Part shown: positions 3,463 to 41,623 of the stretch, piece by piece
How the letters are laid out: each line of letters starts with the position of its first letter
How positions within the stretch are numbered: the stretch's first letter is position 1
Virus record (IMG/VR): IMGVR_UViG_3300033067_001757
Coordinates: 32,001 to 96,000 of that record
Direction: 5' to 3' (one strand)
DNA: 64,000 nucleotides
DNA from: a virus
Taxonomy: Duplodnaviria; Caudoviricetes
Made by a program: the position numbers and the translations under genes
The notes under the pieces: model-generated
The model's database searches: none
Told to the model about the DNA's origin: nothing
Seen by the model: only the letters and a program-made list of their open reading frames with translations

Positions 3463-4143
3463 TTAGATACCGTATCGTTTTTTTACTTCTTCATAAATGA
3501 ACTCATCGTTTGCTTTTATAGAATCGAATATCGGATCACTTGACGTGGCGCTCATCTGAGTTTTTATTGGAAATTTAAGCATACCATTACGCTTTCCTTC
3601 AAGTCGTAATATGTGAAAAATGCTATCGTCGCCACAAAATATTTTCATACGATCATCTATAACCCGGTAGTTGCTCTTATGCATTACCATGAATATTCCG
3701 AATGCATTCCACCTGGTATCCACTGGTATAAAATCAATTCTATCTGCATAGAATGGTTCCAGGTTGTCAATTGGGAGAACATTTGGTTCATATGCACCGA
3801 GTATACCTAACTGATCGATAGGCCCCTGAGCGATTGCTGACACTATACCTTCAGGTAAAAGAATATCATCATTTGCCAGAATAATGTAATCAAAAGATGA
3901 CTTACGCACTCCATAGTTCCAGCTTGGATTAACATACATGTTATAATCCATCTGAACTGGCTTGAGCTTATCAATCCATTTGTTATCACCGAATGGGAAT
4001 GAGTATGCTTCCATTGTTTCACTGTTGTCAATGAGTATTATCTCACCGACTGCGGGATCGTTGTATAAATTTTCGAGGAGCCTGAGAGTAATATTCCAAC
4101 AGCGCTTCATTGTGGGTATTACTACGCTAAACTTTTTTTCCAT
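3463..4143 (-). CDS. glycosyltransferase family 2
   Basis: FSVVIPT, IILIDN, NPSWNYG, LANDDI motifs. Confidence 0.88.
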   Translation of the reverse strand: MEKKFSVVIPTMKRCWNITLRLLENLYNDPAVGEIILIDNSETMEAYSFPFGDNKWIDKLKPVQMDYNMYVNPSWNYGVRKSSFDYIILANDDILLPEGIVSAIAQGPIDQLGILGAYEPNVLPIDNLEPFYADRIDFIPVDTRWNAFGIFMVMHKSNYRVIDDRMKIFCGDDSIFHILRLEGKRNGMLKFPIKTQMSATSSDPIFDSIKANDEFIYEEVKKRYGI

Positions 4144-4328
4144 GTATGATATTGTGTTAATAATATAGAAGTTTCGTCTGAATGTTTTGTATAATCCTCG
4201 TTAAGCAATCTCTCCATCCTTTCAACAGTATCCGGTTCGTAGAATGGTGATTTGGGATTACATATAGCATCCAGGTCTTGTTGAATGTCCGGTGTCCATT
4301 TAACGTTGAGTTTCTTAAACTCGGTCAT
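4122..4328 (-). CDS. small protein with a major-capsid (gp23)-like motif
   Basis: KKLNVKWTPDIQQDLDA resembles the gp23-family RKLKAxWTxExAQDLxA segment. Confidence 0.55.
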   Translation of the reverse strand: MTEFKKLNVKWTPDIQQDLDAICNPKSPFYEPDTVERMERLLNEDYTKHSDETSILLTQYHTWKKSLA

Positions 4329-4705
4329 ATAATCTTTTCCTCTTTAGGTTTACCAAACACGTCATCCAGGCTGATACCGAATAAGCCGGCCATCTTTTTC
4401 AAGAGATCAACTTTCTGTTCCATCTCACAGTGTGGTTCGTTATTTCGCTTATCGTATTCTGCAGCTAACGTGAGAATCTTTTTCATCTCCTCTACTTCTT
4501 TCTTAAGGTCATCGAACTCTTGCCTGGTTACTTCACGTTGAAATAACTTACTGAGGATTAATTCGTCGGTCTTTTTTGGATCGGGAATATAAGGCTGCTG
4601 ATTTGGAATGACCGGATTTGTATATGGACTATCCGGTTTTAGAAATGGGGCTAAGTCTTTCCACCTATCTGTATAATGGTCACCCATATAGGAAACAACA
4701 CACAT
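4325..4705 (-). CDS. hypothetical phage protein with coiled coil
   Basis: MCVVSYMGDHY start; ...AAEYDKRNNEPHCE; overlaps the next gene. Confidence 0.7.
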   Translation of the reverse strand: MCVVSYMGDHYTDRWKDLAPFLKPDSPYTNPVIPNQQPYIPDPKKTDELILSKLFQREVTRQEFDDLKKEVEEMKKILTLAAEYDKRNNEPHCEMEQKVDLLKKMAGLFGISLDDVFGKPKEEKII

Positions 4706-4711
4706 ATGCTT

Positions 4712-5599
4712 TTATATTTTATTGTTTAAAAATTCTTTGTATTTTGAAATGATAGTATCTACCCTCTGAACCTGTGTATGATCGGCGAGGACTTTTCTGT
4801 AACCATTCTCAGCAATCCTTTTACGATCATCATCATTTCTGAGATAGTAATTGATCTTTGAGATACACTCAGATGGTCCGTCATAGTAAACAATATCTTC
4901 GTCTTCGGTAAAGAGCGAATCGATATTGGTATACTCCGGGAGCCGATCAGTAAGCACCATACTACCGCAAGCCATACCTTCAAAAATTCGACGACTGAGT
5001 TCATGATGCCTACTATTTTGTATCGTTATTGATCCTCTGGCTAAAAAATTTCCATAAACGTTACCAGACATACCGTTCTTATTGATAAATTTTTTTGGCA
5101 TAATGTTTTGGAGAACATCTAAAAACTGTGAACCACCTATTCCACGCGTTGATCTTACCGGGGGTAATCCATCACTATTAATATTAAACCATACAGGATA
5201 TTGTGTTCGAGTATCGGCAAAGTGAGTCCACCATATACAATCATAACCAAGTGCTTTGAACTTCTCGGTAGAATCGTAGGCCGGACATAACAATGTATGA
5301 TATCTGTCAGCAAGCACCTGGTGCTTATCGAAATTTTGCGGACAATCGGCTGTCTCACTCGCAACCCACAAACCCTTTGGTAAATATTGTTTATCGAGTC
5401 CGGTGAAGTTCAATCCCTTCCAGTCCATCACCAATAATATATCCCATATAACATCACTTGATAAGAACTGAGATATACCAGCTTCAGACAGATGGAATCT
5501 TTCTACATGGTGGCTTCTGGACTGCATCTCCGCAATTAGTGATCCGGGAGTACTCCAGGTTTCTTCTCCGAATTCGTACATCACTGCAACTTTAAGCAT
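4712..5599 (-). CDS. glycosyltransferase, CgeB/Glyco_trans_1_2 type
   Basis: SRRIFEGMACGSMVLTD...IAENGY...HT motif. Confidence 0.88.
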   Translation of the reverse strand: MLKVAVMYEFGEETWSTPGSLIAEMQSRSHHVERFHLSEAGISQFLSSDVIWDILLVMDWKGLNFTGLDKQYLPKGLWVASETADCPQNFDKHQVLADRYHTLLCPAYDSTEKFKALGYDCIWWTHFADTRTQYPVWFNINSDGLPPVRSTRGIGGSQFLDVLQNIMPKKFINKNGMSGNVYGNFLARGSITIQNSRHHELSRRIFEGMACGSMVLTDRLPEYTNIDSLFTEDEDIVYYDGPSECISKINYYLRNDDDRKRIAENGYRKVLADHTQVQRVDTIISKYKEFLNNKI

Positions 5600-5810
5600 C
5601 TTGTGTATCAGGTTGAGTATATTGTGAAAGCTTCCAGGTAGCGTTTGTTATGGCGTGATCGAAATCAATTGCGACTTGGCTATATCCTACAGATTCCTTG
5701 TGTCCCTTTAGTACGAACTGTCGTAACTCTTTCCACTGTCCCGCTGTCATAGTAGCCTGAATAGTTACCGGTATATCGTCTGGGTTCTGGTAGAATGCTT
5801 TTATTTCCAT
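5592..5810 (-). CDS. hypothetical protein
   Basis: 72-aa packed ORF. Confidence 0.6.
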   Translation of the reverse strand: MEIKAFYQNPDDIPVTIQATMTAGQWKELRQFVLKGHKESVGYSQVAIDFDHAITNATWKLSQYTQPDTQDA

Positions 5811-5812
5811 GA

Positions 5813-6064
5813 CTATACTAATTCAGAGGTTACTACATCACTAATACCTTCCAAAGATTTCCTGGCATTGATCCTACGCTGAGCTTCTACTATCTGACAC
5901 TGCAGATAGGCCATATGTTGGTATAATTCTGATGCTCCATATCTCTCAATATAATCTTCAAGTGTATCCGGATCGAAGGATCCTTCAACTTCTCCGAGTT
6001 GGTATATCGGTGTTTCAAAATCTGTGATATAGCGTATTGACGCTAATGGTTTTGTTTCTGGCAT
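5813..6064 (-). CDS. hypothetical protein
   Basis: 83-aa packed ORF. Confidence 0.6.
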   Translation of the reverse strand: MPETKPLASIRYITDFETPIYQLGEVEGSFDPDTLEDYIERYGASELYQHMAYLQCQIVEAQRRINARKSLEGISDVVTSELV

Positions 6065-6108
6065 ATTGAATTATTTTATTTATAAATAAGACCGGTTGTA
6101 TTACAATT

Positions 6109-6279
6109 TTACCACCAGTATATCCCACCGTATATAATGGTTGAGATGATCATTCCGAATACATATAAAGTTCTACTTACATTGATATCTCCAAAATAAC
6201 CACCTATAGGTTTTGACCTAACTGCATGTTCGAGAAGATATAATTCGATTAAAATGAAAATGATTAAGTGTATGCTCAT
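6109..6279 (-). CDS. small two-helix membrane protein (56 aa)
   Basis: Hand translation MSIHLIIFILIELYLL...FGMIISTIIYGGIYWW fills the gap between ORFs. Confidence 0.6.
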   Translation of the reverse strand: MSIHLIIFILIELYLLEHAVRSKPIGGYFGDINVSRTLYVFGMIISTIIYGGIYWW

Positions 6280-6284
6280 ATTTA

Positions 6285-6494
6285 TTAGTTATTAAAGTCA
6301 AACTCTTCTACTTCAGGATCAACATTATAATCACCTGATAAATGGTGACCTCTTATACATTCTTCACAAAGCAATCTTCCCTCTTTATCATAAGATGCAG
6401 CAGCTTCATTACATTCATCGCATGTGCCGAGATCATATCCGAAATTGAGATATACAAAGTCCTCTATTGATAATTCTTCTGTGTTGTCTGTCAT
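6285..6494 (-). CDS. small zinc-finger protein
   Basis: CDEC...LCEEC. Confidence 0.65.
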   Translation of the reverse strand: MTDNTEELSIEDFVYLNFGYDLGTCDECNEAAASYDKEGRLLCEECIRGHHLSGDYNVDPEVEEFDFNN

Positions 6495-7420
6495 TGTAAA
6501 AATGTTTGGTTGAACTGTTGCATAACTTTTTCAGCGGAAAACTCTGCTACCAGGCTCTTATAATCAAAATCTTTATTCTGAAAGTTTGTGAGGATACTAA
6601 ACAGTTCATTGGGACTTTCATAATAATACCCGCGACTCTTAAGCATCTCCAGATGATTCTTGTCTCGGCCATCTGAGTTAGTGATGACTGGAAGATTACA
6701 AAAACATGCTTCTGCGATGCTGAGTCCGAAACTTTCGCCATCAGTACGGCCTGTAAGGAAGACGTCACACGTATTGAGGAACCCAGCTTTCTGATATTCA
6801 TCTGTAGTAGCATCGATGTATATAATTCTATCATGAACGAATCCCAGGTTCTTTGTGTTCATCAGAATGACATATGCATCTTTACGTTGTTCCAAAAAGG
6901 CTTTCAGTACCTCGGGTATGTATGGAATATTTAGTTGGTCGTAACCCCCGTAACGCCCTATAACAAATGCGTTATCGGGAATCGATAAGAATGGTCTGTA
7001 ATCTTCTGTACATTCGGGTAAGCTCACAATATGCGGACAACATTTGCTACCAGGATGTTGATCTCGTAACCATGTTGAAACATATGCAGTGATCTCAGGA
7101 TTCTTTACATTGAATACAGCGTGATATACGTTTTTAGTATTTTTAAGCTTCTTGCTGGTATCTTCTCCTGAAATGATCTGATATACTACGTCGATTCCTT
7201 CGTTGTCTACAACATTCTGCAAGTCATTGAAATCCTCATATAAGAATACTCTGTCTGGGAATCGTTCTTCAAACTTTGGCCAGGATCTTAAATCACTGTT
7301 CTTTGGTGCTGCTATGAATGACATGTTACCGAGGATATCTTCGTTACCGACTGCGTAGTCAAACAATGCTACACTTGTGCCCCGGTATCCGAGTTGATTT
7401 TCACAGAATAATACTTTCAT
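6491..7420 (-). CDS. GT-B fold glycosyltransferase (GT4-like)
   Basis: RGTSVALFDYA start; GESFGLSIAEA motif. Confidence 0.88.
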   Translation of the reverse strand: MKVLFCENQLGYRGTSVALFDYAVGNEDILGNMSFIAAPKNSDLRSWPKFEERFPDRVFLYEDFNDLQNVVDNEGIDVVYQIISGEDTSKKLKNTKNVYHAVFNVKNPEITAYVSTWLRDQHPGSKCCPHIVSLPECTEDYRPFLSIPDNAFVIGRYGGYDQLNIPYIPEVLKAFLEQRKDAYVILMNTKNLGFVHDRIIYIDATTDEYQKAGFLNTCDVFLTGRTDGESFGLSIAEACFCNLPVITNSDGRDKNHLEMLKSRGYYYESPNELFSILTNFQNKDFDYKSLVAEFSAEKVMQQFNQTFLQ

Positions 7421-7424
7421 TTTG

Positions 7425-7661
7425 TTACCATGTTATCATAATGTAAGGACCCTCTCGCTGATCACCGGGAGTGTGATAAACGTCATATCCTTCCATTTTT
7501 AATTTATTTATCACATCTTGATGTATCATTTTGTAATAAGACATTTCATACTTACCCTTTTTAGACAACGATGTGATTGATGTTTTTATCTCAACGTACT
7601 GAATATTATCAGTTGAAGTATTATAATTTAGCGCTGTCTCTCTTGCTTCTTTTGCTGTCAT
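7425..7661 (-). CDS. hypothetical protein
   Basis: MTAKEAR...LKMEGYDV...ITW, a common small phage protein pattern. Confidence 0.65.
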   Translation of the reverse strand: MTAKEARETALNYNTSTDNIQYVEIKTSITSLSKKGKYEMSYYKMIHQDVINKLKMEGYDVYHTPGDQREGPYIMITW

Positions 7662-7667
7662 GATATT

Positions 7668-20951: not shown

Positions 20952-21455
20952 TCAAAACTTGTACATCGGACATAACATCCGATTGATATTAATCTCCAGT
21001 TTCTTCATTGCCTTGATATATTTCTTACCGGCACCAGGTTGCAGATATCCAATCGTTAAATGTGGGTGATACGTAGGATAATCATTGGTATATGGTAATT
21101 CAGTCAACGCTTTGTTGACCTGTTTGAGCTCAGGTGATTTAATATCAAATTTCAGTACATCATAATCTTCCTTTTCGAATACTGAGATATTATATGCTTT
21201 GATCTTTGAGAAGGTGAATTTACTTATGATGTCTTTCACATCTGATACCGGTACACCATCATGGATACCGTACAGCAGTGTAATATGTGGATCCGTCTCC
21301 AGACCATACGTTTGATCTCCGGTCTCCTCATAAAGGTCCTCCGGAGCGATGACATCATGAATCTTCTTCATGACAGGAAATTTTACATTAAGTAGTACAC
21401 ATCCATATTCGTGTGTATCACTGTGTTTTTCAGTAAGAAGTCTTATCAGGCTCAT
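20952..21455 (-). CDS. 2H phosphoesterase (T4 gp57B/Acb1-like)
   Basis: Two HxT motifs: PHITLLYG and YHPHLTIGY. Confidence 0.8.
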   Translation of the reverse strand: MSLIRLLTEKHSDTHEYGCVLLNVKFPVMKKIHDVIAPEDLYEETGDQTYGLETDPHITLLYGIHDGVPVSDVKDIISKFTFSKIKAYNISVFEKEDYDVLKFDIKSPELKQVNKALTELPYTNDYPTYHPHLTIGYLQPGAGKKYIKAMKKLEININRMLCPMYKF

Positions 21456-21671
21456 TTAATAATGTTTCAAGTTTAGCTTTGAGTGAATTGAAATCTATCT
21501 GAGGATAACCCTGGACGTTGAATACTTCAAATTCAATGCGGTCTACTGAATTGTCACGGAGTATTATATGGTTGTAACCTTTAACTGATTCTTGAACATA
21601 ATCATTATATCTAACCAGATATTCAGGCTCAATTACATGCGGAATCTCGTGACCAATATTGGTTTACTCAT
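21429..21671 (-). CDS. hypothetical protein, split by a 1-nt indel near 21641
   Basis: MSKPILVTRF joins PHVIEPEY...IEFEVFN... if one C is added. Confidence 0.5.
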
Positions 21672-22006
21672 AGACATATTTTCATGTAAAATTGAATGGC
21701 TTCATATTCCTTATTCTGTAGCCACTGGTTATATGATAGGTAACAGTCAGCACATCCATCGACATTATTAGCATAGTCATACCGGTACCGTTTCTCAGCT
21801 TCTTCGTGGTCGATCTCAAGTTTCACTTTAATGAATTTGGTCTTCTCCCATTCAGCGTCGAGTTCTTTGTTTTCCTGGTCCCGGTATTCACGTTCCTCAT
21901 CTGATATTGAATGGATAGGTGGTGTAGTGGTCAAAGGAATATATGGAGCATACACAAGTTCCGCTGGAACGCATTCTTGAAATAAATGTGCTTTCTTATA
22001 ATCCAT
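21668..22006 (-). CDS. small protein with a major-capsid-like YAPYIPL motif
   Basis: LVYAPYIPLTTTP matches the conserved gp23-family C-terminal motif. Confidence 0.55.
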   Translation of the reverse strand: MDYKKAHLFQECVPAELVYAPYIPLTTTPPIHSISDEEREYRDQENKELDAEWEKTKFIKVKLEIDHEEAEKRYRYDYANNVDGCADCYLSYNQWLQNKEYEAIQFYMKICL

Positions 22007-22007
22007 A

Positions 22008-22247
22008 TTATTCCGATTTTATTTCATCAACAATCAAATAAGGTGGGAGGATGTCAACCTTACCATCATCAATCCAATGAAATCCATTGAATCGTAGATC
22101 AGGATACCTTTTTTTAACATGTAAAAAGAATCGTACTGATAAACATAGGTTTGCCAATATTGCATCTACATTGTTTTCATTGAGTATCTTATCTAAATCT
22201 TCAAATGAGTTTATATTGTATTCAGGAAAATCATTTTGTATTGGCAT
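22008..22247 (-). CDS. hypothetical protein
   Basis: Start reassigned to MPIQNDFPEY to avoid a long overlap with groEL; FHWIDDG motif. Confidence 0.6.
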   Translation of the reverse strand: MPIQNDFPEYNINSFEDLDKILNENNVDAILANLCLSVRFFLHVKKRYPDLRFNGFHWIDDGKVDILPPYLIVDEIKSE

Positions 22248-22251
22248 TATG

Positions 22252-23934
22252 TTACCATCCAAACTGTGACATATCATATTGCTCTGCAGCTTTGCTGTCT
22301 TCCTCAACTGGAAACACACATGAATCACTTGTAAGAAATACACCGGCCATACTTGCTGCATTTTCAATGGCTGTGCGAGTGACTTTGGTAGGATCGATAA
22401 CACCGTCTTTTAAGAGGTCGACGTATTGGGATGTCTTGACGTTGTATCCTTGCCATAATTGACCTTTATCATAGTCTGTGTCTGAACCTATTGTTCGTAT
22501 TCCACCCATATTAGATTGAATCTTGCTAAGTATCTCGTAATAGTTTTCTACGCCGGCATTCTTGAGTATTGTGATAAATGGAGAGTACAGTGCTTTCTTA
22601 ACGATCTCCATACCGAGTAACTCGTCACGATTGGTATAATCAGCCTCATTAAGAGCATCTATGCAATTTATGAGTGCCATACCTGCACCAGGAACGATAC
22701 CCTGTTCAATAGCCGCTTTGGTGGCATGGAGTGCATCGTCAACCCGGTCTTTCCGTTCGTTCATTTCTACCTCAGACAATCCACCCACTTTCACAATGGC
22801 TACACCACCGGTAAGCTTGGATAATCTGTCTTGCAGATTCTGTGTCTCAAAGTTTGACGCAGCGTTATCAATCTGCTTCTTAATCTCAAGCATCTTCGCT
22901 TCGATATCTTCTTTCTTTCCTTTACCGTCAACGATTGTTGTATCTGCGGCTGTAATGGTTGAAAGACGACATTCACCGAAATGGGTCTTCAACTCTTCCA
23001 CAGACATCTTCTCGAGCTTGTGACCTTTTGCATTACTGAGTACAGTGCCACCAGTTAACACAGCGATATCTTCCAGCAGCGCTGTCTTACGATCACCGAA
23101 GTCCGGTGCCTTTACAGCACATACTTTTACACTACCGCGTGATTTATTTACTACCAGGATACTCAGTACCTGGGATGAGAAATCTTCTGCGATAAGGAGT
23201 AATGGTTTATTCTGAGCATTTGAATATTGTAGTGCATTGATCACTTGTTTATCTATACCGAGTACTCCGTCATATATTAGTACGATAGTTTCGTGTAGCA
23301 CAGCTTCCATACGTTCATGATCTGTAACGAAATATGGTGATTTGAATCCACGATTGAATAATAGTCCTTCGACAATTTCCAGTTCATCCACACCTGATTT
23401 ACTAGTCTCAATAGAAACTACTCCATCATTACCAACTTTATCAAGCGCCCTGGATATAATCAAGCCGATGGATGGATCATTGTTACCTGAAATGGATGCA
23501 ACATGTTTGATCTCTTCTTCAGTTACATCGAGAGAAATCTCTTTCAATTTCTTCACGACTGCGGCTGCAGCTTTATCAATACCTCGCTTCACATCAGATG
23601 GGTTACTGCCGGCCTGAATAGACTTCAGTCCTTCTTCGATAATAGCTTTAGCGAGAACTACAGATGTAGTGGTACCATCACCTACCTTATCACCACTCTT
23701 TATGGAAACATTACGTACCAGGTCGCTACCGATCGACATAATCGGATCTTCCAGTTTATTGATACTCTTAGCCACTGTTACACCATCCTTGGTTATCTGG
23801 ATAGTATCATCGTCTTTACGGATGATCACTGTCTTACCGCTTGGCCCCAGCGTTGAGCTTACTGCGTCGCTTAATATTTTTACTCCTTCGAAAAGCTTAT
23901 TCTTTAGTGCTAATCCTGTCTGTGTTTTTATCAT
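22252..23934 (-). CDS. groEL: chaperonin GroEL
   Basis: TLGPSG, ITKDGVTVAK, GDGTTT, KAPDFGDR, GVIDPTKVTR. Confidence 0.97.
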   Translation of the reverse strand: MIKTQTGLALKNKLFEGVKILSDAVSSTLGPSGKTVIIRKDDDTIQITKDGVTVAKSINKLEDPIMSIGSDLVRNVSIKSGDKVGDGTTTSVVLAKAIIEEGLKSIQAGSNPSDVKRGIDKAAAAVVKKLKEISLDVTEEEIKHVASISGNNDPSIGLIISRALDKVGNDGVVSIETSKSGVDELEIVEGLLFNRGFKSPYFVTDHERMEAVLHETIVLIYDGVLGIDKQVINALQYSNAQNKPLLLIAEDFSSQVLSILVVNKSRGSVKVCAVKAPDFGDRKTALLEDIAVLTGGTVLSNAKGHKLEKMSVEELKTHFGECRLSTITAADTTIVDGKGKKEDIEAKMLEIKKQIDNAASNFETQNLQDRLSKLTGGVAIVKVGGLSEVEMNERKDRVDDALHATKAAIEQGIVPGAGMALINCIDALNEADYTNRDELLGMEIVKKALYSPFITILKNAGVENYYEILSKIQSNMGGIRTIGSDTDYDKGQLWQGYNVKTSQYVDLLKDGVIDPTKVTRTAIENAASMAGVFLTSDSCVFPVEEDSKAAEQYDMSQFGW

Positions 23935-23941
23935 CTTTTAA

Positions 23942-24265
23942 TTATTGTTTTTCTTCGGTTTCATCGTCTGTATACCCAGCTTCTAATTCCACTTCACGGC
24001 ATATACCGTATTCCTGACCGTCTATTTCTACTGTAGTAACAACGGCCTTCTTAACTGATACTATTTCTCCAACAGTACATTCCATTGGAATACGAGCCAT
24101 AGTGGGTGATAATTCGCTTACGCGGCCAGGGCCTACATCGATTACTTCGTATAAGTTGGACTTCTCTTTACCGGTATCCGGTATAATAATACCACCGTGT
24201 ATCTCTTCTTTGTCAACCGGTTTTAAAATGATTTTGTCGTGCTTTGCACGTAGCCTTTTAGCCAT
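23942..24265 (-). CDS. groES: co-chaperonin GroES
   Basis: DKIILKP...GGIIIPD...KEK...VIDVGPG; directly upstream of groEL. Confidence 0.92.
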   Translation of the reverse strand: MAKRLRAKHDKIILKPVDKEEIHGGIIIPDTGKEKSNLYEVIDVGPGRVSELSPTMARIPMECTVGEIVSVKKAVVTTVEIDGQEYGICREVELEAGYTDDETEEKQ

Positions 24266-24347: not shown

Positions 24348-25088
24348 TTAATCTATACATTCACAAGGTGTCTGAAACAACTCTACGTCTTCAAACTGAG
24401 GATTATCTTTTTCATGAGTATTTATTAAATCGGTCCAGGCATATTGTCTACCAAGCCCTTTCAACTCAACCTTGTTTTTAGCATTGGATTCGATGAACTT
24501 CACTCTTTCTTTCTCATCGTCTGATAATGTAAGTATCTCGGGTTTCTTCATACTCGGACAAAAGAAGCAACTGCTCTTACCGGGTAAACATAGTTTAGAT
24601 AATAATATTTCTTCAACACATCTTGGCCTATCCCATCCCCATTCTATTAATGGGTAGAGATTGGTATGATTCTTTAAAGGGTTATCCTTCACGCGTCGAG
24701 ATTCACCAATATCATAGCCTATGTAATGCACAATTTCATCACCTTTATAACGTTCGTTTATGAATTTTGACTGTGGTCTTATCTTGAATTTATCGCTGCA
24801 ACTTTTAAATCCAAAAGCTATAGCCGGTAATGTATTGTTATTGATAATATCCTGTTCGAGAGTGAGTTCAATACCATCTTTTGTTTTGTACTTCACTATC
24901 TCGATCTCAGGCATCCCGTTTTGTTTAAGCCATTTACTGAAATATGATATGTAAGAATAAGTTGCTTGTCTCTCACCACCGGTATCAGCGAATAAAATAT
25001 GATCCGGAACCATCCCTTGCTTTTGTAAACCTATGATCATAGCGGTAGAATTAGTTCCACCACCATAGCTTATTATTTTTCTCACCAT
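24348..25088 (-). CDS. PAPS-reductase-like adenine nucleotide alpha-hydrolase
   Basis: PP-loop SYGGGTNS, FADTGGE, KSSCFFCP, terminal PCEC. Confidence 0.8.
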   Translation of the reverse strand: MVRKIISYGGGTNSTAMIIGLQKQGMVPDHILFADTGGERQATYSYISYFSKWLKQNGMPEIEIVKYKTKDGIELTLEQDIINNNTLPAIAFGFKSCSDKFKIRPQSKFINERYKGDEIVHYIGYDIGESRRVKDNPLKNHTNLYPLIEWGWDRPRCVEEILLSKLCLPGKSSCFFCPSMKKPEILTLSDDEKERVKFIESNAKNKVELKGLGRQYAWTDLINTHEKDNPQFEDVELFQTPCECID

Positions 25089-30704: not shown

Positions 30705-32011
30705 TTCAATATATTTTTAGTTTCTTCATAATCATCAACCACTTTATTATCTTTCAGCAGTATAGTTGTCTTATCTTTTATCTTAGCCTTACCGACCATC
30801 TCGAATACGAGTTGGTATCCTTTACCGGTGAGGTATGCTTCAATCTCTTTGAGGTTATCTTCATCAAGCAGGTTTGCATCCTGGATGAATACATATTTGA
30901 GTTTTGGATTCTGAGAGGATATGAGTACTGGTATGGTCTTTAGTAACTCACCGGTGCTGAAGAACGGTTCTTTGATAAGCTTACCATCCATGAGTAGTTG
31001 ACCTTCATCATCTATGCTGAGATTATCGAATGGGAGCTTCAATGATTTGATGTAATCTATGCGATCCTGCTCCTTGGTTTTTTGTTTGTTGGTGTTAGTA
31101 TCGAGCTTCGCTTTCGTATCATCCTTCTGTTGCTTCTTCTCGATATATTTCTGGTATGCAACAGCCTTATCGTTTGTATCTGATGCGTTTTGTATCTGCA
31201 GGTTGATGTCATCGAGAGGCTTGATTGGTTCCGGTATGGGTAATTCAGCTAAAGCCGCTTCGGTAGACACGATGCTATCCCTAACAACAAGCAGTTTAGC
31301 TTTAAGACGAACGATTTCATCTACTATATCATCAGCTTCTGTTACTAAGGACGCAATCTGATCCTTAGCTGCAATAATAGCTTCCTGTTTCTTACCCTGT
31401 TCTGTATTAAACTCAATGATCTCATCCTTTTGCTTCGACAAGTCAGCAAAGTCTACCTTCTCAGCATAGTCCACCGGTGTCAGTTCGCCCAGATTACGGT
31501 AATCGCGGTTGATATTCGTATACTCTGTTTTAAGCTCTTTGATCTCATTATCTATGCCAGCAGTATCAATACCTATAGCCAGCGCCTGACCCTTCGGAGA
31601 GAGCTCCGTAAAGCGTTTTGGAGCTATTAAAAAAAGATTGAACAGATCGGTAAGCCACTGTTGATTCAGATTGGCTGTATCAGGTCCCTGGAACTTTAAT
31701 TCGGTACCAGTCTTGGTAAGCTTACGGAGCACCTTTACTTCCCACCCGGTCTTTTCATCGTATAGAGTCATCTCACCTTTACCGGTAACACCGTTAGGGC
31801 CTATGAAACGGAATCTTTCACTGATGATTGGTGATGTGCCTTTAGCTACTTTCTCGGATATACCTTCAAAGATGAATTGTACACCAGTGATACCGAGTGT
31901 GGATTTACCACCACCATTCTTACCGACCAGGTAGGTCACATTTTCATCGAAGGATACGGATACTGAAGCGTAATTAGCGAAATTGTTGAGGGATATGTCT
32001 TTTATTTTCAT
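30701..32011 (-). CDS. SMC/Rad50-like ATPase
   Basis: Walker A GKNGGGKST, long coiled coil, signature FSTGE, Walker B-like VFIQD. Confidence 0.8.
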   Translation of the reverse strand: MKIKDISLNNFANYASVSVSFDENVTYLVGKNGGGKSTLGITGVQFIFEGISEKVAKGTSPIISERFRFIGPNGVTGKGEMTLYDEKTGWEVKVLRKLTKTGTELKFQGPDTANLNQQWLTDLFNLFLIAPKRFTELSPKGQALAIGIDTAGIDNEIKELKTEYTNINRDYRNLGELTPVDYAEKVDFADLSKQKDEIIEFNTEQGKKQEAIIAAKDQIASLVTEADDIVDEIVRLKAKLLVVRDSIVSTEAALAELPIPEPIKPLDDINLQIQNASDTNDKAVAYQKYIEKKQQKDDTKAKLDTNTNKQKTKEQDRIDYIKSLKLPFDNLSIDDEGQLLMDGKLIKEPFFSTGELLKTIPVLISSQNPKLKYVFIQDANLLDEDNLKEIEAYLTGKGYQLVFEMVGKAKIKDKTTILLKDNKVVDDYEETKNILK

Positions 32012-33591
32012 TTAGCTAAGCGTTGACGGATCATGTCGAGGGTTTCTTCTATGATCATTTTACTGTCTTTGAATACAGTTCGTAAAGCCCCACCTTGCTC
32101 TTCTTCTTTGGTACATTGATCTTTCAACTGATAAGTAGAGTGATGTAGTTTACCGAGACTGTCTGCATTTAATATTTCATTAACGCGGAGTAAGCCTTTG
32201 GCGCTTTTCTTGGTACCATCATCTGTAATAGGATCCTTAAATATTTCACGGCCAACTGATACCATTTGATTGTGTACAGCACCATCTGCAGATGCTACTA
32301 CTGATACCGGTTCAAGTACTTCACCGTATGTAGCTTTTACAGCGAAGCCAAACAAGTCCCTGGTGATCCAATATTGGTTTCCCGGAGATGTTTCACCACC
32401 AGTATATGTCATACTACCAATACCAAGGACAATATTAGTAGAAGCGAAGCCTTTAGCTTTCAATCTTGCACATATTTCATCGGCTAAAACAAGGGTTATA
32501 GAATCACCATAAATACCACCTATATGTGAATCAAGGACTTTATAACCTTTATCGTTTATAGTACCCCCGAATATTTCCCACAAACATTCAACCAATCCTT
32601 TTTTATAGAATTCTGGATAATACGCCTGCTTTTCTCTTTCGGTCAATTCATCATCGTGACCACATATAATATCAGCAGGTGTTCGCTTGTTAGGACAGGA
32701 ATCGGGTCTAATAACAAGTTTCCCATCTCGACTCATTATTTCGTTCTTTATTTGAAATAAGACACCATCCGATTCAGGTTTAGCTACTTTAGTTATATCC
32801 CAGGTATCCATAACTTTTGAAATGATACCAGTCTTGTATAATCTAAATGCTTTTAGGATTGAATCTTTCTCATTTCCTTCTCCACCCATGCACTCCACGC
32901 TATGTTCAGATGCTGGCACCGATGCACCGATCAAACCTGCCGCATTGTAGCTTTTTTTCAACTGATATATAGCTGGGATAACATCTGTACCAGTAAAGCT
33001 CAGAAGATGACCCATACCGGATAAAATAGAAGACTCTACTGATGACATACCTCGCATAGAGAAGTCATGACCTTGCCATTGTACACCATCTGCGTTACCA
33101 GTAGTCTCAATCGCATATTTTGTAAGTAATTTCTTGTACTCATATGCTATTGTAGCAGATGTGATCGGTTGCCAAAGGGTACAACTGATAAGTGTTTCAA
33201 GATAGTTTACGAGCCATGCAAACTCCGGATGAGTATTGGTAATGGTTAACAAAGGAACACCAATTGGACATCTTGATCCTTCTGGTAAAGCTTTGATTTC
33301 AATAGGTAAATATCCCAACTCGTGAAGTCTTTCAATATGACTGAGATCAATCTTTATCTCTTCGTAATATTCATCGCGAATCTTACTCCATGGTACATTG
33401 AAAAACTCTTTATCGAAAGCGTCGATAAGATAAGTTTTACATAAGTGTTGTATAGCGAATACAACAACCTTATCGACACCTTTCATCCTGCTTTTTCTCG
33501 GAGTGAGATTGGAATTGAGTTTTGTCATTCCATCCGGATACATCGGGTTGTGATGTGGCTTGTAAAAATCTACTAATAATAGTGGGTTCAT
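32008..33591 (-). CDS. nicotinamide phosphoribosyltransferase-like protein (NAMPT/Namat)
   Basis: DFYK, HDFSMRG, SVPASEHS, LVIRPDS, IYGDSIT, KDPITDDGTKKSAKG. Confidence 0.92.
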   Translation of the reverse strand: MNPLLLVDFYKPHHNPMYPDGMTKLNSNLTPRKSRMKGVDKVVVFAIQHLCKTYLIDAFDKEFFNVPWSKIRDEYYEEIKIDLSHIERLHELGYLPIEIKALPEGSRCPIGVPLLTITNTHPEFAWLVNYLETLISCTLWQPITSATIAYEYKKLLTKYAIETTGNADGVQWQGHDFSMRGMSSVESSILSGMGHLLSFTGTDVIPAIYQLKKSYNAAGLIGASVPASEHSVECMGGEGNEKDSILKAFRLYKTGIISKVMDTWDITKVAKPESDGVLFQIKNEIMSRDGKLVIRPDSCPNKRTPADIICGHDDELTEREKQAYYPEFYKKGLVECLWEIFGGTINDKGYKVLDSHIGGIYGDSITLVLADEICARLKAKGFASTNIVLGIGSMTYTGGETSPGNQYWITRDLFGFAVKATYGEVLEPVSVVASADGAVHNQMVSVGREIFKDPITDDGTKKSAKGLLRVNEILNADSLGKLHHSTYQLKDQCTKEEEQGGALRTVFKDSKMIIEETLDMIRQRLAK

Positions 33592-33613
33592 GACCTTTAT
33601 TTTTTGTTGTTTA

Positions 33614-34081
33614 TTATGGTTGATATAATACGACTGTCACATCGCAGTCTTTAAATTCTTTTTGTATTATAAGCTTGATAGTATCCCAGTCACCACCGGC
33701 AAGGTGGCTTCCGATAGCCGGTAAACCAATATGCTTTCCTTTAAACGTATGATTCATCTTACGCATACAGAGAGTGAAAGCATCATAGTCAAATGGTTTT
33801 GTTTCTGTTGACCAATGGTATTGGGTGTAACAGTTCACCACAGCTAAGAAATTAGGTTTGCCCAGATTTGCAAACTGCTGCCAATCAATCTGACCGAGTT
33901 TATTAATATCACCCGCATACCTCGGTGCTTCTAATGGAAAATAATCAGTTCCAAAAGCTTTAACCATTTGTGGTGCCAGGCCACGTTTTTGACGACACAT
34001 ACAATTACATCCATGAGCGATTACGTCGAATGCTCCAGACTTGGCGAGTGTAATCAAATTACCTTCAATTTCTTTATACAT
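33614..34081 (-). CDS. macrodomain protein (ADP-ribose hydrolase-like)
   Basis: GNLI...IAHGCNC...GLA...YTQY...PAIGSHLAGGDW. Confidence 0.88.
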   Translation of the reverse strand: MYKEIEGNLITLAKSGAFDVIAHGCNCMCRQKRGLAPQMVKAFGTDYFPLEAPRYAGDINKLGQIDWQQFANLGKPNFLAVVNCYTQYHWSTETKPFDYDAFTLCMRKMNHTFKGKHIGLPAIGSHLAGGDWDTIKLIIQKEFKDCDVTVVLYQP

Positions 34082-35010
34082 TAGAATACATTTAACTGTT
34101 TAACAAATCCTACTTTACTCATAGTAAGCATCACACCATTGTTGACATTATCATGACCAATAAAAGCAGCATCAATGTCTTTCACTGAATTAGTGCAGAA
34201 TATATTATCAAACCATTCATCCAATACTTTCAATCCACCTGAGAATATTCCGTGTGTGATAATGAGATAAATCTTAGCTTGTGGACGCATTGATTTAATA
34301 ACCTTAGATATCTCAATAAACGTTCGACCACCATCACAGATGTCATCAATGATTATAAATGTATCGTGAGTATGTTCACCTGCAACAAGAGGTACCTGTG
34401 TTGATAATATTTTTCCAGTAGAAATATCACGATGCTTTGATGCTACGATAACATCATTTTTATAATCTATAGCCTGGGCTACATCGTATATTTTTTTAAG
34501 TGCTCCGGCATCCGGAGATATCAACGCAAATTGATCTGAAGTATATCCTTCACAATCGCAATTGTCTGATTCATAACATCCAAGATTCAGTGCTTCCAAA
34601 GCAAATGTTACAAGTGAAGTATTGTCTCGTTTGATAAGATTATTTATCACCGCTTCAGAGACGTCACTGTGTGGATCAATAACTTCTACTGAGGAATAGT
34701 TTTGTGCGTTTATAATAGGAGCAACGACATCGCGGAGATAGCTGGTGCCACCTTTCTGGAATTTGCGGTCTGACCTGGCACCAAGGATATTAGGAATGAA
34801 TAGATGGATTTGTGTAACACCATTATTTTTAAGCGCTTTAGTGGCACAGATGATAAGTTCCAAATCTCTGAAATTGTTAAATCTGGAGCTTATCTGTACC
34901 GGGCCAACCCAATCGGTTTTAATTATGATATCCTGTTGTCCGTCTGGATAACTTCTCTTCTCATAATTAATAGATGAATTTTCACTATCTAATAGATTGA
35001 GTACTTTCAT
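34081..35010 (-). CDS. ribose-phosphate pyrophosphokinase-like protein (PRS/Adps)
   Basis: YPDGQ, ARSDR, DPHS, SPDAGA, IIDDICDGGRTF, THG. Confidence 0.9.
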   Translation of the reverse strand: MKVLNLLDSENSSINYEKRSYPDGQQDIIIKTDWVGPVQISSRFNNFRDLELIICATKALKNNGVTQIHLFIPNILGARSDRKFQKGGTSYLRDVVAPIINAQNYSSVEVIDPHSDVSEAVINNLIKRDNTSLVTFALEALNLGCYESDNCDCEGYTSDQFALISPDAGALKKIYDVAQAIDYKNDVIVASKHRDISTGKILSTQVPLVAGEHTHDTFIIIDDICDGGRTFIEISKVIKSMRPQAKIYLIITHGIFSGGLKVLDEWFDNIFCTNSVKDIDAAFIGHDNVNNGVMLTMSKVGFVKQLNVF

Positions 35011-36983: not shown

Positions 36984-37009
36984 CCTGTAAAAGCGTAGTT
37001 TATAGTGTT

Positions 37010-37043
37010 AAAAATACCCCGACGAAGTATCTTGCCGGGTATA
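37010..37043 (-). terminator. hairpin plus U-tract between helicase and nrdJ
   Basis: ATACCCGGC...GTCGGGGTAT followed by TTTT on the minus strand. Confidence 0.5.
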
Positions 37044-37114
37044 TAAATAGTGTGAAATGTTTGAAAGAAAAATGTTTGTTGGTAACTTTTTTCGATGGTA
37101 TATATGATATGCTA

Positions 37115-38434: not shown

Positions 38435-38467
38435 GTTATATATCCTATCTTTTTTTCGTGACCTTTA

Positions 38468-38692
38468 TTAAAATAATTCCCATTGATCAATATAATCCCA
38501 TTGTGATTCTTTGGCTTTATCTTCAATAGCTTCTTTCACCAGCTTTAGAACCTTCTTATTAACATGAAAATCCTCCACCGTATCTATAGCCCAACCGAGA
38601 TATTTCGGATCAATATCAAGTACAGTTTTAATGGTCTGTCGTTTATACTTTCCGAAAGTGAATTTATCCCCGAGACCCAAAGATTTTGTCAT
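38468..38692 (-). CDS. small FGKY-motif protein (DUF3820/ExoX C-terminal-like)
   Basis: FTFGKYK..TI..V...DPKYLGW. Confidence 0.7.
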   Translation of the reverse strand: MTKSLGLGDKFTFGKYKRQTIKTVLDIDPKYLGWAIDTVEDFHVNKKVLKLVKEAIEDKAKESQWDYIDQWELF

Positions 38693-38700
38693 GACCTTAA

Positions 38701-38904
38701 TTATTTCCTGTTATACAGCCTGTGTGCGTATAGATGCTCATACCATCTGGTAGATGCTTTCTCTATATCTTTCTTCTTGAATGGATTCTTCTTACCGGCT
38801 GTCGTGTAAGTATTGTACCAGTAAACAGGATCCTCCCGGCACCGTATGAATTCATCGTAGTGATGGTCGAAGAGTTTTGTGTTGTTGTTCATATTATTGT
38901 ACAA
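38701..38904 (-). CDS. small protein resembling the large terminase N-terminus
   Basis: EFIRCREDPVYWYNTY...PF resembles the gp17-family E[YW]xKCxxDxVYFxxxY segment. Confidence 0.55.
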   Translation of the reverse strand: MYNNMNNNTKLFDHHYDEFIRCREDPVYWYNTYTTAGKKNPFKKKDIEKASTRWYEHLYAHRLYNRK

Positions 38905-39160
38905 TCAGTTTTACTTCCATCCCGGTAATCTCCTTAATGGAATTGATAATATTATCTTGCACATCAACCGCTATTTGTTTCGGTATCGCGTCATCTTCGG
39001 GAACTATTATAGACGCTTCCAGTTGAGGCTTATTAAATAATATATCAGGAAGTTCAAGATTAATCTTTATACTGACCTCATCCCAGGCAAGATCGGGTTT
39101 TCCTTTTGATACGCGAACGCTACCATTCTTATTTACAGTTAAATGACATTGAAGTTTCAT
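38894..39160 (-). CDS. hypothetical protein
   Basis: 88-aa packed ORF. Confidence 0.65.
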   Translation of the reverse strand: MKLQCHLTVNKNGSVRVSKGKPDLAWDEVSIKINLELPDILFNKPQLEASIIVPEDDAIPKQIAVDVQDNIINSIKEITGMEVKLIVQ

Positions 39161-39169
39161 AGTAATATT

Positions 39170-40207
39170 TTAATAATTATTAAGCACTGAAAAAAGTTCT
39201 ATCCAATGCGATGCATAAGGAAGAGTATCTCCAAGCCGATCAATCTCACATAACTTTAAGAAGTCATACTTCTGCAGCTTTGGTATCTCCCGGTTAAATT
39301 GATGATGTATTTCTTCGAGGTCAACATTTGAGATATTGGGCTCATGAAGATTCATGATCTGATAGTTAATGGCCAGTTTACGCTTATCTTCAAGCAACCG
39401 TGTAAATAGTTTACCATAGTCCTGGTTATATTCAGCATGATCAAAGACTTCATCGAGCATCATTCTGTTGGGTTCAACAAATTGAGGAAACATCTTAGAA
39501 ATCTTCTTCTCACCAATACCATGAACACCTTTCACATTGTCCGATGAGTCGCCGAGTATAGCTTTATATAAAAGGAAATTTGCAGGATGTACACCAAACT
39601 CTTCAAGTACCTGCTGAGTATTGTAATGGATATGTTTTATAGGACTCCATACTGATATACGATCATTCACAAGTTGAAAGAAATCTCTGTCTGATGACAT
39701 GATCGTTATTTCGCAGTCTGGTTCCTCACGGTATAGCTTTCCGCTTAGGTATCCGATTATATCATCGGCCTCCAATTTGTCAACACACATACAGTTGACT
39801 GGTAATAACTTCAAATAGTCCATCAACCTGGTAATCTCATTCAGCTTAGCATCGTCTTCATCTTTCTTTGTTTCGAAAGACTTATAATTCATCACCTTTT
39901 GATTGTTCCTGTTACTCTTATATTCTGGTAACAGATACTTGCGATTTTGAGACCCAGCCTCGCCATCAAATACAATTATGACACGAGTGGGCATCAGTTG
40001 TTTTATAACGCTGCCGAGGCTCTTTAAGAAGCCTGTGAGACCACCTATGTGGTTACCGGCAAGATTGATATGATTTATTACTGCAAAATTCCGGATGAAG
40101 GTGTTCATTCCATCGATGAATAGTACACGACTATTGAACTGCAGGTTCAACGGTTTGGTTTCTTCCGTGATGGAATTAAAGAGGTTAAGGAGATTGAGTT
40201 TGGTCAC
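39170..40207 (-). CDS. 5'-3' exonuclease/flap endonuclease (T4 RNase H-like)
   Basis: IDGMN, VFDG, YKSNR, EADDII, SSDRDF, GDSSDNVKGV.GIG. Confidence 0.93.
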   Translation of the reverse strand: MTKLNLLNLFNSITEETKPLNLQFNSRVLFIDGMNTFIRNFAVINHINLAGNHIGGLTGFLKSLGSVIKQLMPTRVIIVFDGEAGSQNRKYLLPEYKSNRNNQKVMNYKSFETKKDEDDAKLNEITRLMDYLKLLPVNCMCVDKLEADDIIGYLSGKLYREEPDCEITIMSSDRDFFQLVNDRISVWSPIKHIHYNTQQVLEEFGVHPANFLLYKAILGDSSDNVKGVHGIGEKKISKMFPQFVEPNRMMLDEVFDHAEYNQDYGKLFTRLLEDKRKLAINYQIMNLHEPNISNVDLEEIHHQFNREIPKLQKYDFLKLCEIDRLGDTLPYASHWIELFSVLNNY

Positions 40208-40566
40208 TTACCTTCAGAAAGTTTTGTGTTATCAATCATGTAAGTGAAACGTGGACATATAAGAGTAACTTTATATTGTTGCAACTCATCCGCAAGCGTC
40301 TCGCCTAATATGAGAGCTCTTTCCCATATAACTATTTCATCACGTATAAACCTTGGATACTGAATAAATTCAATGATCACACCCGGTTCATTACCATTTG
40401 TATATAAGTATTCAGTGGGAGTAAACGATACACATTCACCTTTCTCATCTACAAACTTTTGACATATAGCTCTCGCTTTGTCTATACTTTGTATCTCACC
40501 GGTATCACGGATTTTTAATCCAACATGGATGGTCGCTTTAAACGTAATTGCGTATTTTACTTGCAT
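40204..40566 (-). CDS. hypothetical protein
   Basis: YTNGNEPGVII..IQYPRF pattern. Confidence 0.65.
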   Translation of the reverse strand: MQVKYAITFKATIHVGLKIRDTGEIQSIDKARAICQKFVDEKGECVSFTPTEYLYTNGNEPGVIIEFIQYPRFIRDEIVIWERALILGETLADELQQYKVTLICPRFTYMIDNTKLSEGK

Positions 40567-40575
40567 ATCAATAAT

Positions 40576-41418
40576 TTAAACAAAGCATTCACATGGTTTT
40601 GCTTCGTCGAGTGATTCAATTTTATATTTCTTTAAATACTTACCGAATTCTCCTTTCGGTATATGTTCGGATGCTGGTATGCCTGCACATTTCATCCTTT
40701 CAAATATTGGTTCCAGTTCGGATAATGGTGATGGATGCATGACACCCTTCTTCATCATTCTGAGGATTGAGTAGCCCAGGTATTCTTCGGTCTCTTTAGC
40801 CTTCTTAAAGATGTCGTACCTGGTACAATATGTGACATACCAGTGTTGCATTCCACCCTTGAGACAGCCTGTACAATTAGCATGTTTGAATTGGCTATAT
40901 GTATTAGGCTTTCTGATACCGATTTCTTCTGTGCTGAATATGGTTCTTTCATCCCACAAAGCGAGTGGATAATCTGTTTGATATCCCATCGCTCCTAATA
41001 TTGATTGACGTCGAGCAACTCTGTTCATTTCATTAGCATCAAAACCATAGTATATGATACAATCTTCATCAGGAAAATATCTTTGCAGAAAAATATTAAA
41101 TGGTCTTGTTTTTAGTCTGCTCGTACAAATAGCTTCACCTGAATTCGGCGCTTTAAAACCACTTTCTTTTACAGCAATATCAAATTGATCCGGTATATCA
41201 TTTGGATTGGTAACATCTTTATAGTTGGCATATGTAATTGGTATTCCTAAGTATTCAGATACTTCATTACCAAATCTTTTGATATCAGCTTCTTCTTTAT
41301 CAGGATGAATATCATGGTTAAGTAATATGACATTTTCTTTACCGAACTTCCTGGTGACTTCTATCGCAACCAACGCTGATGAATGACCCTTACTGAAACA
41401 TACGATGTGTTTATTCAT
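40576..41418 (-). CDS. second PAPS-reductase-like protein
   Basis: VCFSKGHSSA, CTSRLK, HANCTGCLKGG, terminal PCEC. Confidence 0.75.
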   Translation of the reverse strand: MNKHIVCFSKGHSSALVAIEVTRKFGKENVILLNHDIHPDKEEADIKRFGNEVSEYLGIPITYANYKDVTNPNDIPDQFDIAVKESGFKAPNSGEAICTSRLKTRPFNIFLQRYFPDEDCIIYYGFDANEMNRVARRQSILGAMGYQTDYPLALWDERTIFSTEEIGIRKPNTYSQFKHANCTGCLKGGMQHWYVTYCTRYDIFKKAKETEEYLGYSILRMMKKGVMHPSPLSELEPIFERMKCAGIPASEHIPKGEFGKYLKKYKIESLDEAKPCECFV

Positions 41419-41623
41419 TCATTCTCTCCTTCACTAACGCTATTATTTTTTCAACGGTATCCAGGCCATCCATTTCATCGTCGTTGATTATGACTGAAAA
41501 CAATTTTTCTATTTGCATAATCATATCAAAAAAATACCATACATCAATCATCTGATCTGTTCCTACATAATTCAGAATATTTGATTCATATTCATTATAT
41601 AATTCTCTTATTTTTTCTTCCAT
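41411..41623 (-). CDS. acyl-carrier-protein-like protein lacking the phosphopantetheine serine
   Basis: 70 aa, acidic; DMIMQIEKLFSVIINDDEMDGLDTVEKIIALV aligns with ACP helices II-IV; DVW replaces DSL. Confidence 0.6.
   Translation of the reverse strand: MEEKIRELYNEYESNILNYVGTDQMIDVWYFFDMIMQIEKLFSVIINDDEMDGLDTVEKIIALVKERMNE

Follow-up and report, generated by a model that had tools for sequence, protein, structure and literature searches.

Among host immune sensors, Lit is tied to the Gol peptide, which lies in the N-terminal quarter of the capsid protein gp23, and Avs sensors detect the terminase through its folded ATPase and nuclease. T4-type capsid proteins are, in addition, obligate clients of chaperonins. 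A literature search turned up no description of decoys or mini-copies of phage capsid or terminase proteins, and none of serine-less phage acyl carrier proteins (ACPs). The DNA analysed here, a stretch of 64,000 nucleotides referred to as the window, comes from a large, T4-like phage of 187 kb, in which a preliminary description had proposed one decoy system of four small ORFs, each with a short block resembling part of a capsid, terminase or acyl carrier protein. The four ORFs are present, all on the minus strand, with lengths of 68, 112, 67 and 70 aa (ORFs 1 to 4), and they lie amid glycosyltransferase, chaperonin, anti-CBASS and replication genes. They are also far from the head genes, since the capsid and terminase of this phage are encoded 11-20 kb past the end of the window. 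The reading preferred here, with a probability of roughly 0.55, is that the four are unrelated small accessory genes, each kept by its own selection, and do not form one system. The features of the locus are given in Table 1.

Table 1 Features of the four small ORFs and their neighbours in the window
Feature	Coordinates	Strand	Description
ORF 1 (P0001, 68 aa)	4122..4328	(-)	Orphan small gene within a glycosyl/methyl-transferase cluster
ORF 1 block, residues 5-21, KKLNVKWTPDIQQDLDA	4266..4316	(-)	Like the capsid family consensus rklkavwtpefaqdlna
Acb1-like (anti-CBASS) 2H phosphoesterase	20952..21455	(-)	Downstream of ORF 2; PF23474, E 8.5e-9
ORF 2 (P0002, 112 aa)	21668..22006	(-)	Predicted disordered tail, then three-helix domain of an unnamed small-protein family
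ORF 2 block, residues 16-32, ELVYAPYIPLTTTPPIH	21911..21961	(-)	Like the capsid C-terminal consensus GavyapyvPlimtPlvy
Phage GroES (23942-24265) and GroEL (22252-23934)	22252..24265	(-)	Just upstream of ORF 2; Cpn10, E 1.5e-12; Cpn60, E 8.5e-68
ORF 3 (63 aa from ATG)	38701..38892	(-)	Basic small protein between a 5'-3' exonuclease and a DnaB-type helicase
ORF 3 block, residues 14-29, EFIRCREDPVYWYNTY	38806..38853	(-)	Copy of the T4-type large-terminase N-terminal signature
PP-loop / PAPS-reductase-like gene (P0028)	40576..41418	(-)	Overlaps the end of ORF 4 by 8 nt; phrog_424, E 4.9e-28
ORF 4 (P0004, 70 aa)	41411..41623	(-)	Complete predicted carrier-protein (ACP/PCP) fold without the attachment serine

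The four ORFs are regarded as real genes because dN/dS against close relatives is 0.07-0.24 (ORF 1, 0.12; ORF 2, 0.12; ORF 3, 0.07-0.12; ORF 4, 0.24), values obtained from tiny homologue sets of one to three close relatives and from 10-60 underlying substitutions. The same values rule out neutral decay into pseudogene debris. All four frames are intact in several relatives, and the blocks are retained in the homologues. Megablast with 20 kb of window sequence as the query gave no match among phages, word-based searches with ORFs 1, 3 and 4 returned near-identical relatives only, and ESM Atlas feature searches with ORFs 1 and 3 returned nothing usable.

The proposal that the four ORFs form one system was not supported. 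They are spread over 37 kb in four unrelated gene neighbourhoods and have no motif in common, the best shared 8-residue window having 4/8 identities, and a comparison of the small genes of the genome (168 plus ORF 3) revealed no C-terminal tail in common. No homologues of ORFs 2, 3 and 4 were found in five related phage records (three complete, with a capsid identity of about 48 % where measured), and ORF 1 gave short motif-level matches only in the same records. No co-inheritance of the four was seen in these records, and no synteny or common conservation pattern links them.

The terminase match of ORF 3 is, on sequence comparison, the best supported of the resemblances. Its start codon is most likely the ATG at 38892, which makes the product 63 aa long, the length found in the relatives, and not the TTG at 38904 that had been noted (67 aa). 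As in T4-type gp17 (PHROG 5989), residues 14-29 carry the signature [FL]-[IL]-[KR]-C-x-[ED]-D-P-[VI]-[YH]-[FW], the gp17 counterpart of which is an N-terminal segment ahead of the adenine-binding and Walker A motifs. Unlike gp17, ORF 3 has no Walker A/B ATPase core or C-terminal nuclease domain, and it lies amid replication genes, with a distance of 46 kb to the gene of the real, 530-aa terminase. A search of ORF 3 against PHROG matched one family, the terminase large subunit PHROG 5989 (E 8.8e-5, profile positions 100-130), and when this family was searched over the phage's own genome ORF 3 was found with E 4.5e-5. Smith-Waterman alignment of ORF 3 with two cyanophage TerL proteins gave scores of 77 and 72, with none of 5000 shuffles above 62; the block has 11/16 residues identical to cyanophage TerL, and ORF 3 fits cyanophage terminases better than the phage's own terminase. 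An HMM of the phage's own terminase family gave E 0.066 for ORF 3, a score reached in 8/60 shuffled sets. The homologues of ORF 3 (P0009 and P0011) are about 94 % identical, whereas the adjoining helicase is just 49 % identical in the same relative, and codons 10-30 of the three homologues differ by five synonymous and no replacement changes. In IMG/VR the pattern C-x-E-D-P-V-Y-W gave five matches, none of them a small ORF; a confirmed terminase and a probable one were matched in their N-terminal regions, and no other stand-alone copy of the signature was found in the five related phage records or the two cyanophages. A review of the T4 head yielded no role for this segment of gp17. The terminase signature copy is the most constrained part of ORF 3, and the gene most likely derives from a terminase gene, as an old fragment that was exapted. 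A terminase gene split around ORF 3 was considered and rejected, the neighbours being an ExoX-like small ORF, the DnaB-type helicase and the 5'-3' exonuclease.

The short block ascribed to each ORF in the preliminary description was upheld for the terminase block of ORF 3, is borderline for the capsid blocks of ORFs 1 and 2, and does not apply to ORF 4, which is a whole ACP domain. Profile comparison with gp23, gp17 and ACP thus gave one significant match (ORF 3 to the PHROG terminase) and a confirmed ACP fold for ORF 4. The latter matches PDB 2l4b with E 0.002 and was modelled by AF2 with a pLDDT of 90.7 (2/5 models confident); the predicted structure has the four-helix carrier-protein fold, and the 50 PDB entries listed by Foldseek as matches consist throughout of ACP or PCP chains or of ACP-containing complexes (TM 0.5-0.7). 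Like ACP/PCP proteins (PF00550, PF14573; PDB 2l4b, Escherichia coli AcpP), ORF 4 has the four-helix fold and the length, and its sequence fits helices II-IV, with scores under the Pfam gathering cut-offs (PF14573, 21.5 versus 32 bits; PF00550, 13.7 versus 20.8 bits). Unlike ACPs, it has no phosphopantetheine serine, and no PPTase or acyl-enzyme neighbour was seen. The position of the DSL serine at the start of helix II is occupied by Val28 in the 2l4b alignment and by Gln24 in an alternative register, and no serine is conserved between ORF 4 and its homologue P0010. Having lost the serine, ORF 4 would therefore be able only to bind and not to carry. Also unlike ACPs, it has a PP-loop ATPase gene as its translationally coupled neighbour, and the overlap of the two genes recurs in a relative (L149). 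ORF 4 is probably the partner or a small adaptor of this ATPase. ORF 4 as a conserved partner of PP-loop enzymes was not borne out, distant PP-loop homologues having no upstream ACP-like gene. At its most modest, the analysis yields a clear case of a carrier-fold protein that lacks the serine, and a well-supported mini-protein that carries a terminase signature on its own.

Like T4-type gp23 (PF07068), ORFs 1 and 2 each match one signature segment of 15-17 residues, aligning to residues 311-327 (ORF 1) and 495-509 (ORF 2) of the phage's own capsid protein; unlike gp23, they have no HK97 fold and their flanks are unrelated. When a capsid-family HMM was searched against 969 non-self six-frame ORFs, ORFs 1 and 2 took ranks 1 and 2 with E 0.14 and 0.16, and the second-best score was equalled in 0/60 shuffled ORF sets, so that the joint top ranking has a frequency of about 1 % or less by shuffling. 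The Gumbel p values are 3e-5 and 6e-5 per sequence, and in hhalign comparisons the blocks scored 33.8 and 32.2 against the capsid (probabilities 45-68 %), the next best of 168 small genes scoring 20.9. Taken alone, each capsid block is borderline. No Pfam match to Gp23 (PF07068) was obtained for ORFs 1 and 2 at E up to 10, and in the phage's own genome PF07068 found only the 545-aa capsid gene. A tblastn search against 50,697 phage records gave no capsid match, and in a BLASTP run of all 168 small proteins with 50 large ones neither capsid pair reached E 0.02. The 120 IMG/VR matches listed for the pattern A-P-Y-I-P-x4-T-P are capsid genes throughout, with no small ORF among them.

These values bear on the explanation that the capsid and terminase resemblances all arose by chance and only the ACP likeness is real, which is considered unlikely. 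It would account for the marginal capsid E values and hhalign probabilities, for the failure of the Pfam, tblastn and BLASTP searches to find the capsid, and for the own-family terminase score of ORF 3, which some shuffled sets reach. It would also suit the matches of ORF 1, a gene that overlaps both adjacent genes and has only homologues that are about 94 % identical. A genome-wide search with ORF 1 recovered the capsid motif in one relative (G001, E 0.026), but in another (G003) the better match was that of residues 8-68 to an NT5C-like protein (E 0.0098); ORF 1 fits this unrelated protein about as well as it fits the capsid, and its capsid-like block may be chance. Against chance as a general explanation, the PHROG library search named the terminase unprompted, the alignment score of ORF 3 with cyanophage TerL was unmatched in 5000 shuffles, the paired capsid scores did not occur in the 60 shuffled sets and have low Gumbel p values, and the capsid-profile score of the ORF 2 block survives seven substitutions.

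This last comparison is between ORF 2 and P0012, which are 86 % identical; 7/17 block positions differ and the capsid-profile score is as good, and under a neutral substitution model the score was retained in 0.3 % of trials from P0002 to P0012 and 3.6 % in reverse. The tail carrying the capsid-like block is present in P0002 and P0012 only. An exhaustive HMMER search with ORF 2 gave 16 matches (E 4.9e-57 to 6.4e-4), 15 of which cover solely residues 37-110 or thereabouts, i.e. the helical domain. The family alignment (A1) unites the members by the C-terminal three-helix domain, F-I-K ... S-F-N-Q-W-L, with Y74, S91, Q94, W95 and L96 invariant, and no Pfam or PHROG family was found for ORF 2. 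Helices were modelled by AF2 at residues 36-56, 67-79 and 92-111, with pLDDT below 50 at residues 1-19 and averaging 57 at residues 21-30, and the model had no fold match in the PDB by Foldseek. ORF 2 is thus a member of a widespread unnamed three-helix family in which a flexible tail with the capsid C-terminal signature was probably gained in one lineage only.

Signatures of late virion or packaging proteins in three of the four ORFs should be above the expectation for a random set of small genes, and with the first two ranks of the capsid profile search also falling to these ORFs, a common logic of mimicry may therefore lie behind them. On the preferred reading, the likeliest mode of action of the blocks that are real (ORF 3 and probably ORF 2) would be that of a short linear motif binding the same partner as the matching segment of the terminase or capsid protein. 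A bolder explanation, which is judged unlikely, is that ORF 3, ORF 2 and perhaps also ORF 1 are naturally occurring microprotein mimics, each presenting one terminase or capsid segment on a small basic protein or a flexible tail and competing for the partner of that segment. Such a partner might be a chaperonin, a host sensor or a factor in assembly or packaging, and what is affected might be the timing of the phage itself, relatives that co-infect the cell or the immunity of the host. Should the blocks prove to be functional mimics, large phages would employ tiny copies of segments of their own late proteins as regulators or decoys.

The more specific proposal is judged improbable; it holds that the mini-proteins, made early, either occupy immune sensors of the host as decoys or inhibit the capsid and terminase of co-infecting relatives in a dominant-negative manner. 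The significant terminase block and the top-ranked capsid blocks are in its favour, as are the closer fit to the family consensus of the blocks than of the phage's own proteins, which would suit a target common to many phages, the position of the ORF 2 block on a predicted disordered tail, the location of the genes within replication and accessory clusters, and the proximity of ORF 2 to Acb1 and of a family member to Apyc1. The ORFs have, however, no common tag, regulation or co-inheritance, and the blocks are merely 15-17 residues long. A block of 16 residues would moreover be a poor decoy for Lit or Avs, because the Gol region is taken to occupy a part of gp23 other than the two capsid-block sites, and what Avs sensors read is the terminase fold as a whole.

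It is quite improbable that ORF 2 assists the chaperonin, using its capsid-like tail to dock on the phage GroEL and to mimic a client or serve as a capsid-folding adaptor. Such a role would be consistent with the location of ORF 2, which follows groES-groEL on the same strand at a distance of about 250 nt, with another family member less than 4 kb from Cpn10/Cpn60, and with the chaperonin requirement of T4-type capsid proteins, but most family members are tailless and have no nearby chaperonin in the contexts retrieved, and the adjacency may merely mirror shared phage ancestry. A complex prediction for ORF 2 with the apical domain of the phage GroEL scored 0.02 (mark, 0.32), a value that speaks for neither binding nor its absence. 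That the ORFs are functionless remnants left by the decay of genes for capsid, terminase and ACP, as the short blocks with unrelated flanks and the mosaic surroundings with insertions and deletions might suggest, is very improbable in view of the intact frames in several relatives, the low dN/dS and the conservation of ORF 3 beside a diverged helicase.

Among the unrelated accessory genes of the preferred reading, ORF 2 defines an unnamed small-protein family that sometimes adjoins the anti-defence enzymes Acb1 and Apyc1. Neighbours of about 182 aa beside ORF 2 family members were also considered as Acb1 and were rejected by Pfam. The ORF 2 homologue of one relative (L150) directly overlaps an Acb1-like gene, and one family member adjoins Apyc1.

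The four small ORFs belong to a phage that is T4-like, with a source record of 187,243 bp at 36.7% G+C, of which the window covers bases 32001-96000, and the closest named phage is Flavobacterium phage immuto (capsid identity 47.5%). The phage's capsid gene is of the Gp23 family (545 aa; PF07068, E 4.4e-61); it and the large terminase (530 aa) are both located outside the window, in which almost all genes are carried on the minus strand. The ORFs, which the preliminary description had presented as one candidate system imitating capsid, terminase and acyl carrier protein (ACP), were found at the positions claimed for them, and the observation of look-alikes was largely right. The grouping into a system was unsupported: no motif or tail common to ORFs 1-4 was found, their neighbourhoods are separate, and related records hold no set of homologues. 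In the five related records searched (three complete; capsid identity ~48% in the two having a capsid locus), no homologues of the ORF 2 family, ORF 3 or ORF 4 were present, and ORF 1 gave motif-level matches only, to a capsid (record G001) and to an NT5C-like region (record G003). We read the four as independent small genes, with a probability of about 0.55.

Positions of the small ORFs and of neighbouring features in the window
Feature	Position	Strand	Length (aa)	Setting or remark
ORF 1	4122-4328	-	68	Glycosyl/methyl-transferase cluster
Acb1-like anti-CBASS phosphoesterase	within 20952-21667	-		Downstream of ORF 2
Additional 212 nt	21456-21667			One frame open, without canonical start
ORF 2	21668-22006	-	112	After phage groES-groEL pair, before Acb1-like gene
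ORF with no assigned function	22008-22403		80-131	Overlaps 3' end of GroEL
Phage-own GroES and GroEL	22252-24265	-	107, 560	Chaperonin pair
PAPS-reductase-like gene	24348-25088			Weak match
Segment of ~4.2 kb	30705-34914		436, 527, 155, part of 309	Between ribonucleotide reductase and dGTP-diphosphohydrolase-like gene
Small ORFs flanking ORF 3	38468-38692; 38894-39160			Gained or lost among close relatives
ORF 3	38701-38892	-	63 from ATG (67 from TTG at 38904)	Between 5'-3' exonuclease and DnaB-type helicase
PP-loop / PAPS-reductase-like gene	40576-41418	-		Motif S-K-G-H-S-S; S-G-G-H-S-S in two distant homologues
ORF 4	41411-41623	-	70	8-nt overlap with PP-loop / PAPS-reductase-like gene
Mosaic hot spot	41411-43060			Compared with 8173-9400 of contig L149
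DUF6934-like ORF	41608-42096		162	Missing from L149
Homing endonuclease	42089-43060			Just 36% identity to that of L149, a close relative

The terminase resemblance of ORF 3 was well supported. The start of this ORF is most probably the ATG at 38892, which gives 63 aa, as in relatives. A search of all 38,880 PHROG families returned solely the terminase large subunit (E 8.8e-5), and when that family was run across the phage genome it picked out ORF 3 (E 4.5e-5) beside the real terminase. Smith-Waterman alignment to two cyanophage TerL proteins gave ORF 3 scores of 77 and 72, higher than the maxima of 5000 shuffles (58 and 62). The block EFIRCREDPVYWYNTY shares 11 of its 16 positions with cyanophage gp17 (EFIKCKEDPVYFTKTY) and is closer to it than to the phage's own terminase; an HMM of the phage's own terminase family, used alone, gave no significant match (E 0.066, a score reached by 8 of 60 shuffled sets). 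In IMG/VR, five occurrences of the pattern C-x-E-D-P-V-Y-W were found, two of them in N-terminal parts of large ORFs (one an HMM-confirmed terminase, one terminase-like by motifs only) and none in a real small gene. No second terminase match was present in four related phage records having a terminase match, nor in two cyanophages (one each).

The capsid resemblances of ORFs 1 and 2 are suggestive but borderline. When an HMM of the phage's capsid protein and 28 relatives was applied to all 971 six-frame ORFs, ORF 1 (E 0.14) and ORF 2 (E 0.16) ranked next after the capsid gene itself, but neither had a capsid match in Pfam or tblastn, and the capsid pairs were not listed at E 0.02 in all-against-all BLASTP. 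Among 60 shuffled ORF sets, the best match reached at least 6.4 bits in eight and the second-best at least 6.2 bits in none. With hhalign the two scored 33.8 and 32.2 against the capsid (probabilities 45-68%), whereas the next-ranked of the 168 small genes scored 20.9 and 621 shuffles reached at most 27.7 (Gumbel fit p = 3e-5 and 6e-5), although this test is not independent of the HMMER one, since both use the same capsid alignment. These statistics are to be read against the many other famous proteins available for matching. In G003, an unrelated protein of 560 aa has an NT5C-like region that residues 8-68 of ORF 1 also matched (E 0.0098), slightly more strongly than ORF 1 matched the G001 capsid (E 0.026); one or both of the matches must be noise. 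That the virion-like blocks arose by pure chance is rather improbable.

The ORF 2 block kept its capsid-profile score despite divergence: the only full-length homologue, P0012 (86% identity overall), has other residues at 7 of the 17 block positions and scores 25.3 bits, against 23.1 bits in ORF 2, a retention seen in 0.3% of trials starting from ORF 2 under a BLOSUM-type neutral model and in 3.6% in reverse. In three ORF 3 homologues, codons 10-30 had 5 synonymous and 0 replacement changes, and the remainder 8 and 6 (Fisher one-sided p ~0.11). Mimicry with a function, including the putative role as epitope decoys or as dominant-negative inhibitors of co-infecting relatives, appears unlikely. 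The host sensors named as targets fit poorly, because Gol, through which Lit acts, lies elsewhere in gp23 than the capsid-like blocks, and Avs recognises the entire terminase fold.

Exhaustive HMMER searching with ORF 2 gave 16 matches, 15 of which span only residues ~37-110, a conserved domain (F-I-K ... S-F-N-Q-W-L) that matched no Pfam or PHROG family. The AF2 model has three confident helices, with no fold match found in the PDB, and the capsid-like block sits in its low-confidence tail (pLDDT <50 at residues 1-19, mean 57 at 21-30). In two retrieved contexts, family members adjoin Acb1 (contig L150, a close relative whose arrangement mirrors that of the window) or the anti-Pycsar gene Apyc1 (P0014); further members have ordinary replication contexts. 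An anti-defence or early-gene role is possible for this family. One member has Cpn10/Cpn60 within 4 kb, and ORF 2 itself follows a chaperonin pair; a chaperonin accessory role for ORF 2 is quite improbable. In L150 the ORF 2 homologue and the Acb1-like gene overlap, and the window has the additional 212 nt.

The ACP resemblance of ORF 4 proved real, but it involves the entire domain and not a short block. Matches were obtained to PF14573 (E 2.7e-4, Pfam cut-offs not being reached), the PHROG ACP family (E 1.2e-4) and PDB 2l4b (E 0.002). The AF2 model (pLDDT 90.7, confident in two of five models) has four helices, and its Foldseek PDB matches, among the 50 listed, were ACP/PCP chains or ACP-containing complexes. 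The attachment-serine position is occupied by Val28 or Gln24, depending on register, and no serine is common to ORF 4 and its 59% identical homologue P0010, which suggests that ORF 4 is a carrier fold for binding only. Its coupling to the PP-loop gene also occurs in L149 and was not found in distant homologues of the PP-loop enzyme. Compared with L149, ORF 4 is mosaic, with synonymous divergence saturated in the N-terminal half and an almost identical C-terminal half.

Judged against close relatives on metagenomic contigs, all four ORFs are real genes. Neutral decay is excluded, with dN/dS at 0.12 for ORF 1 (7 synonymous, 4 replacement changes), 0.12 for ORF 2 (tail 0.20, domain 0.05), 0.07-0.12 for ORF 3 (three pairwise comparisons) and 0.24 for ORF 4. 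ORF 3 shares 94% identity with its counterpart in one relative, against only 49% for the adjoining helicase. It is very improbable that the ORFs are debris. Beside ORF 3, an ExoX-C-like 74-aa ORF is missing from contigs L022 and L149, and an 88-aa ORF from L149. The ~4.2 kb segment is also missing from L149, which is elsewhere 88-95% identical.
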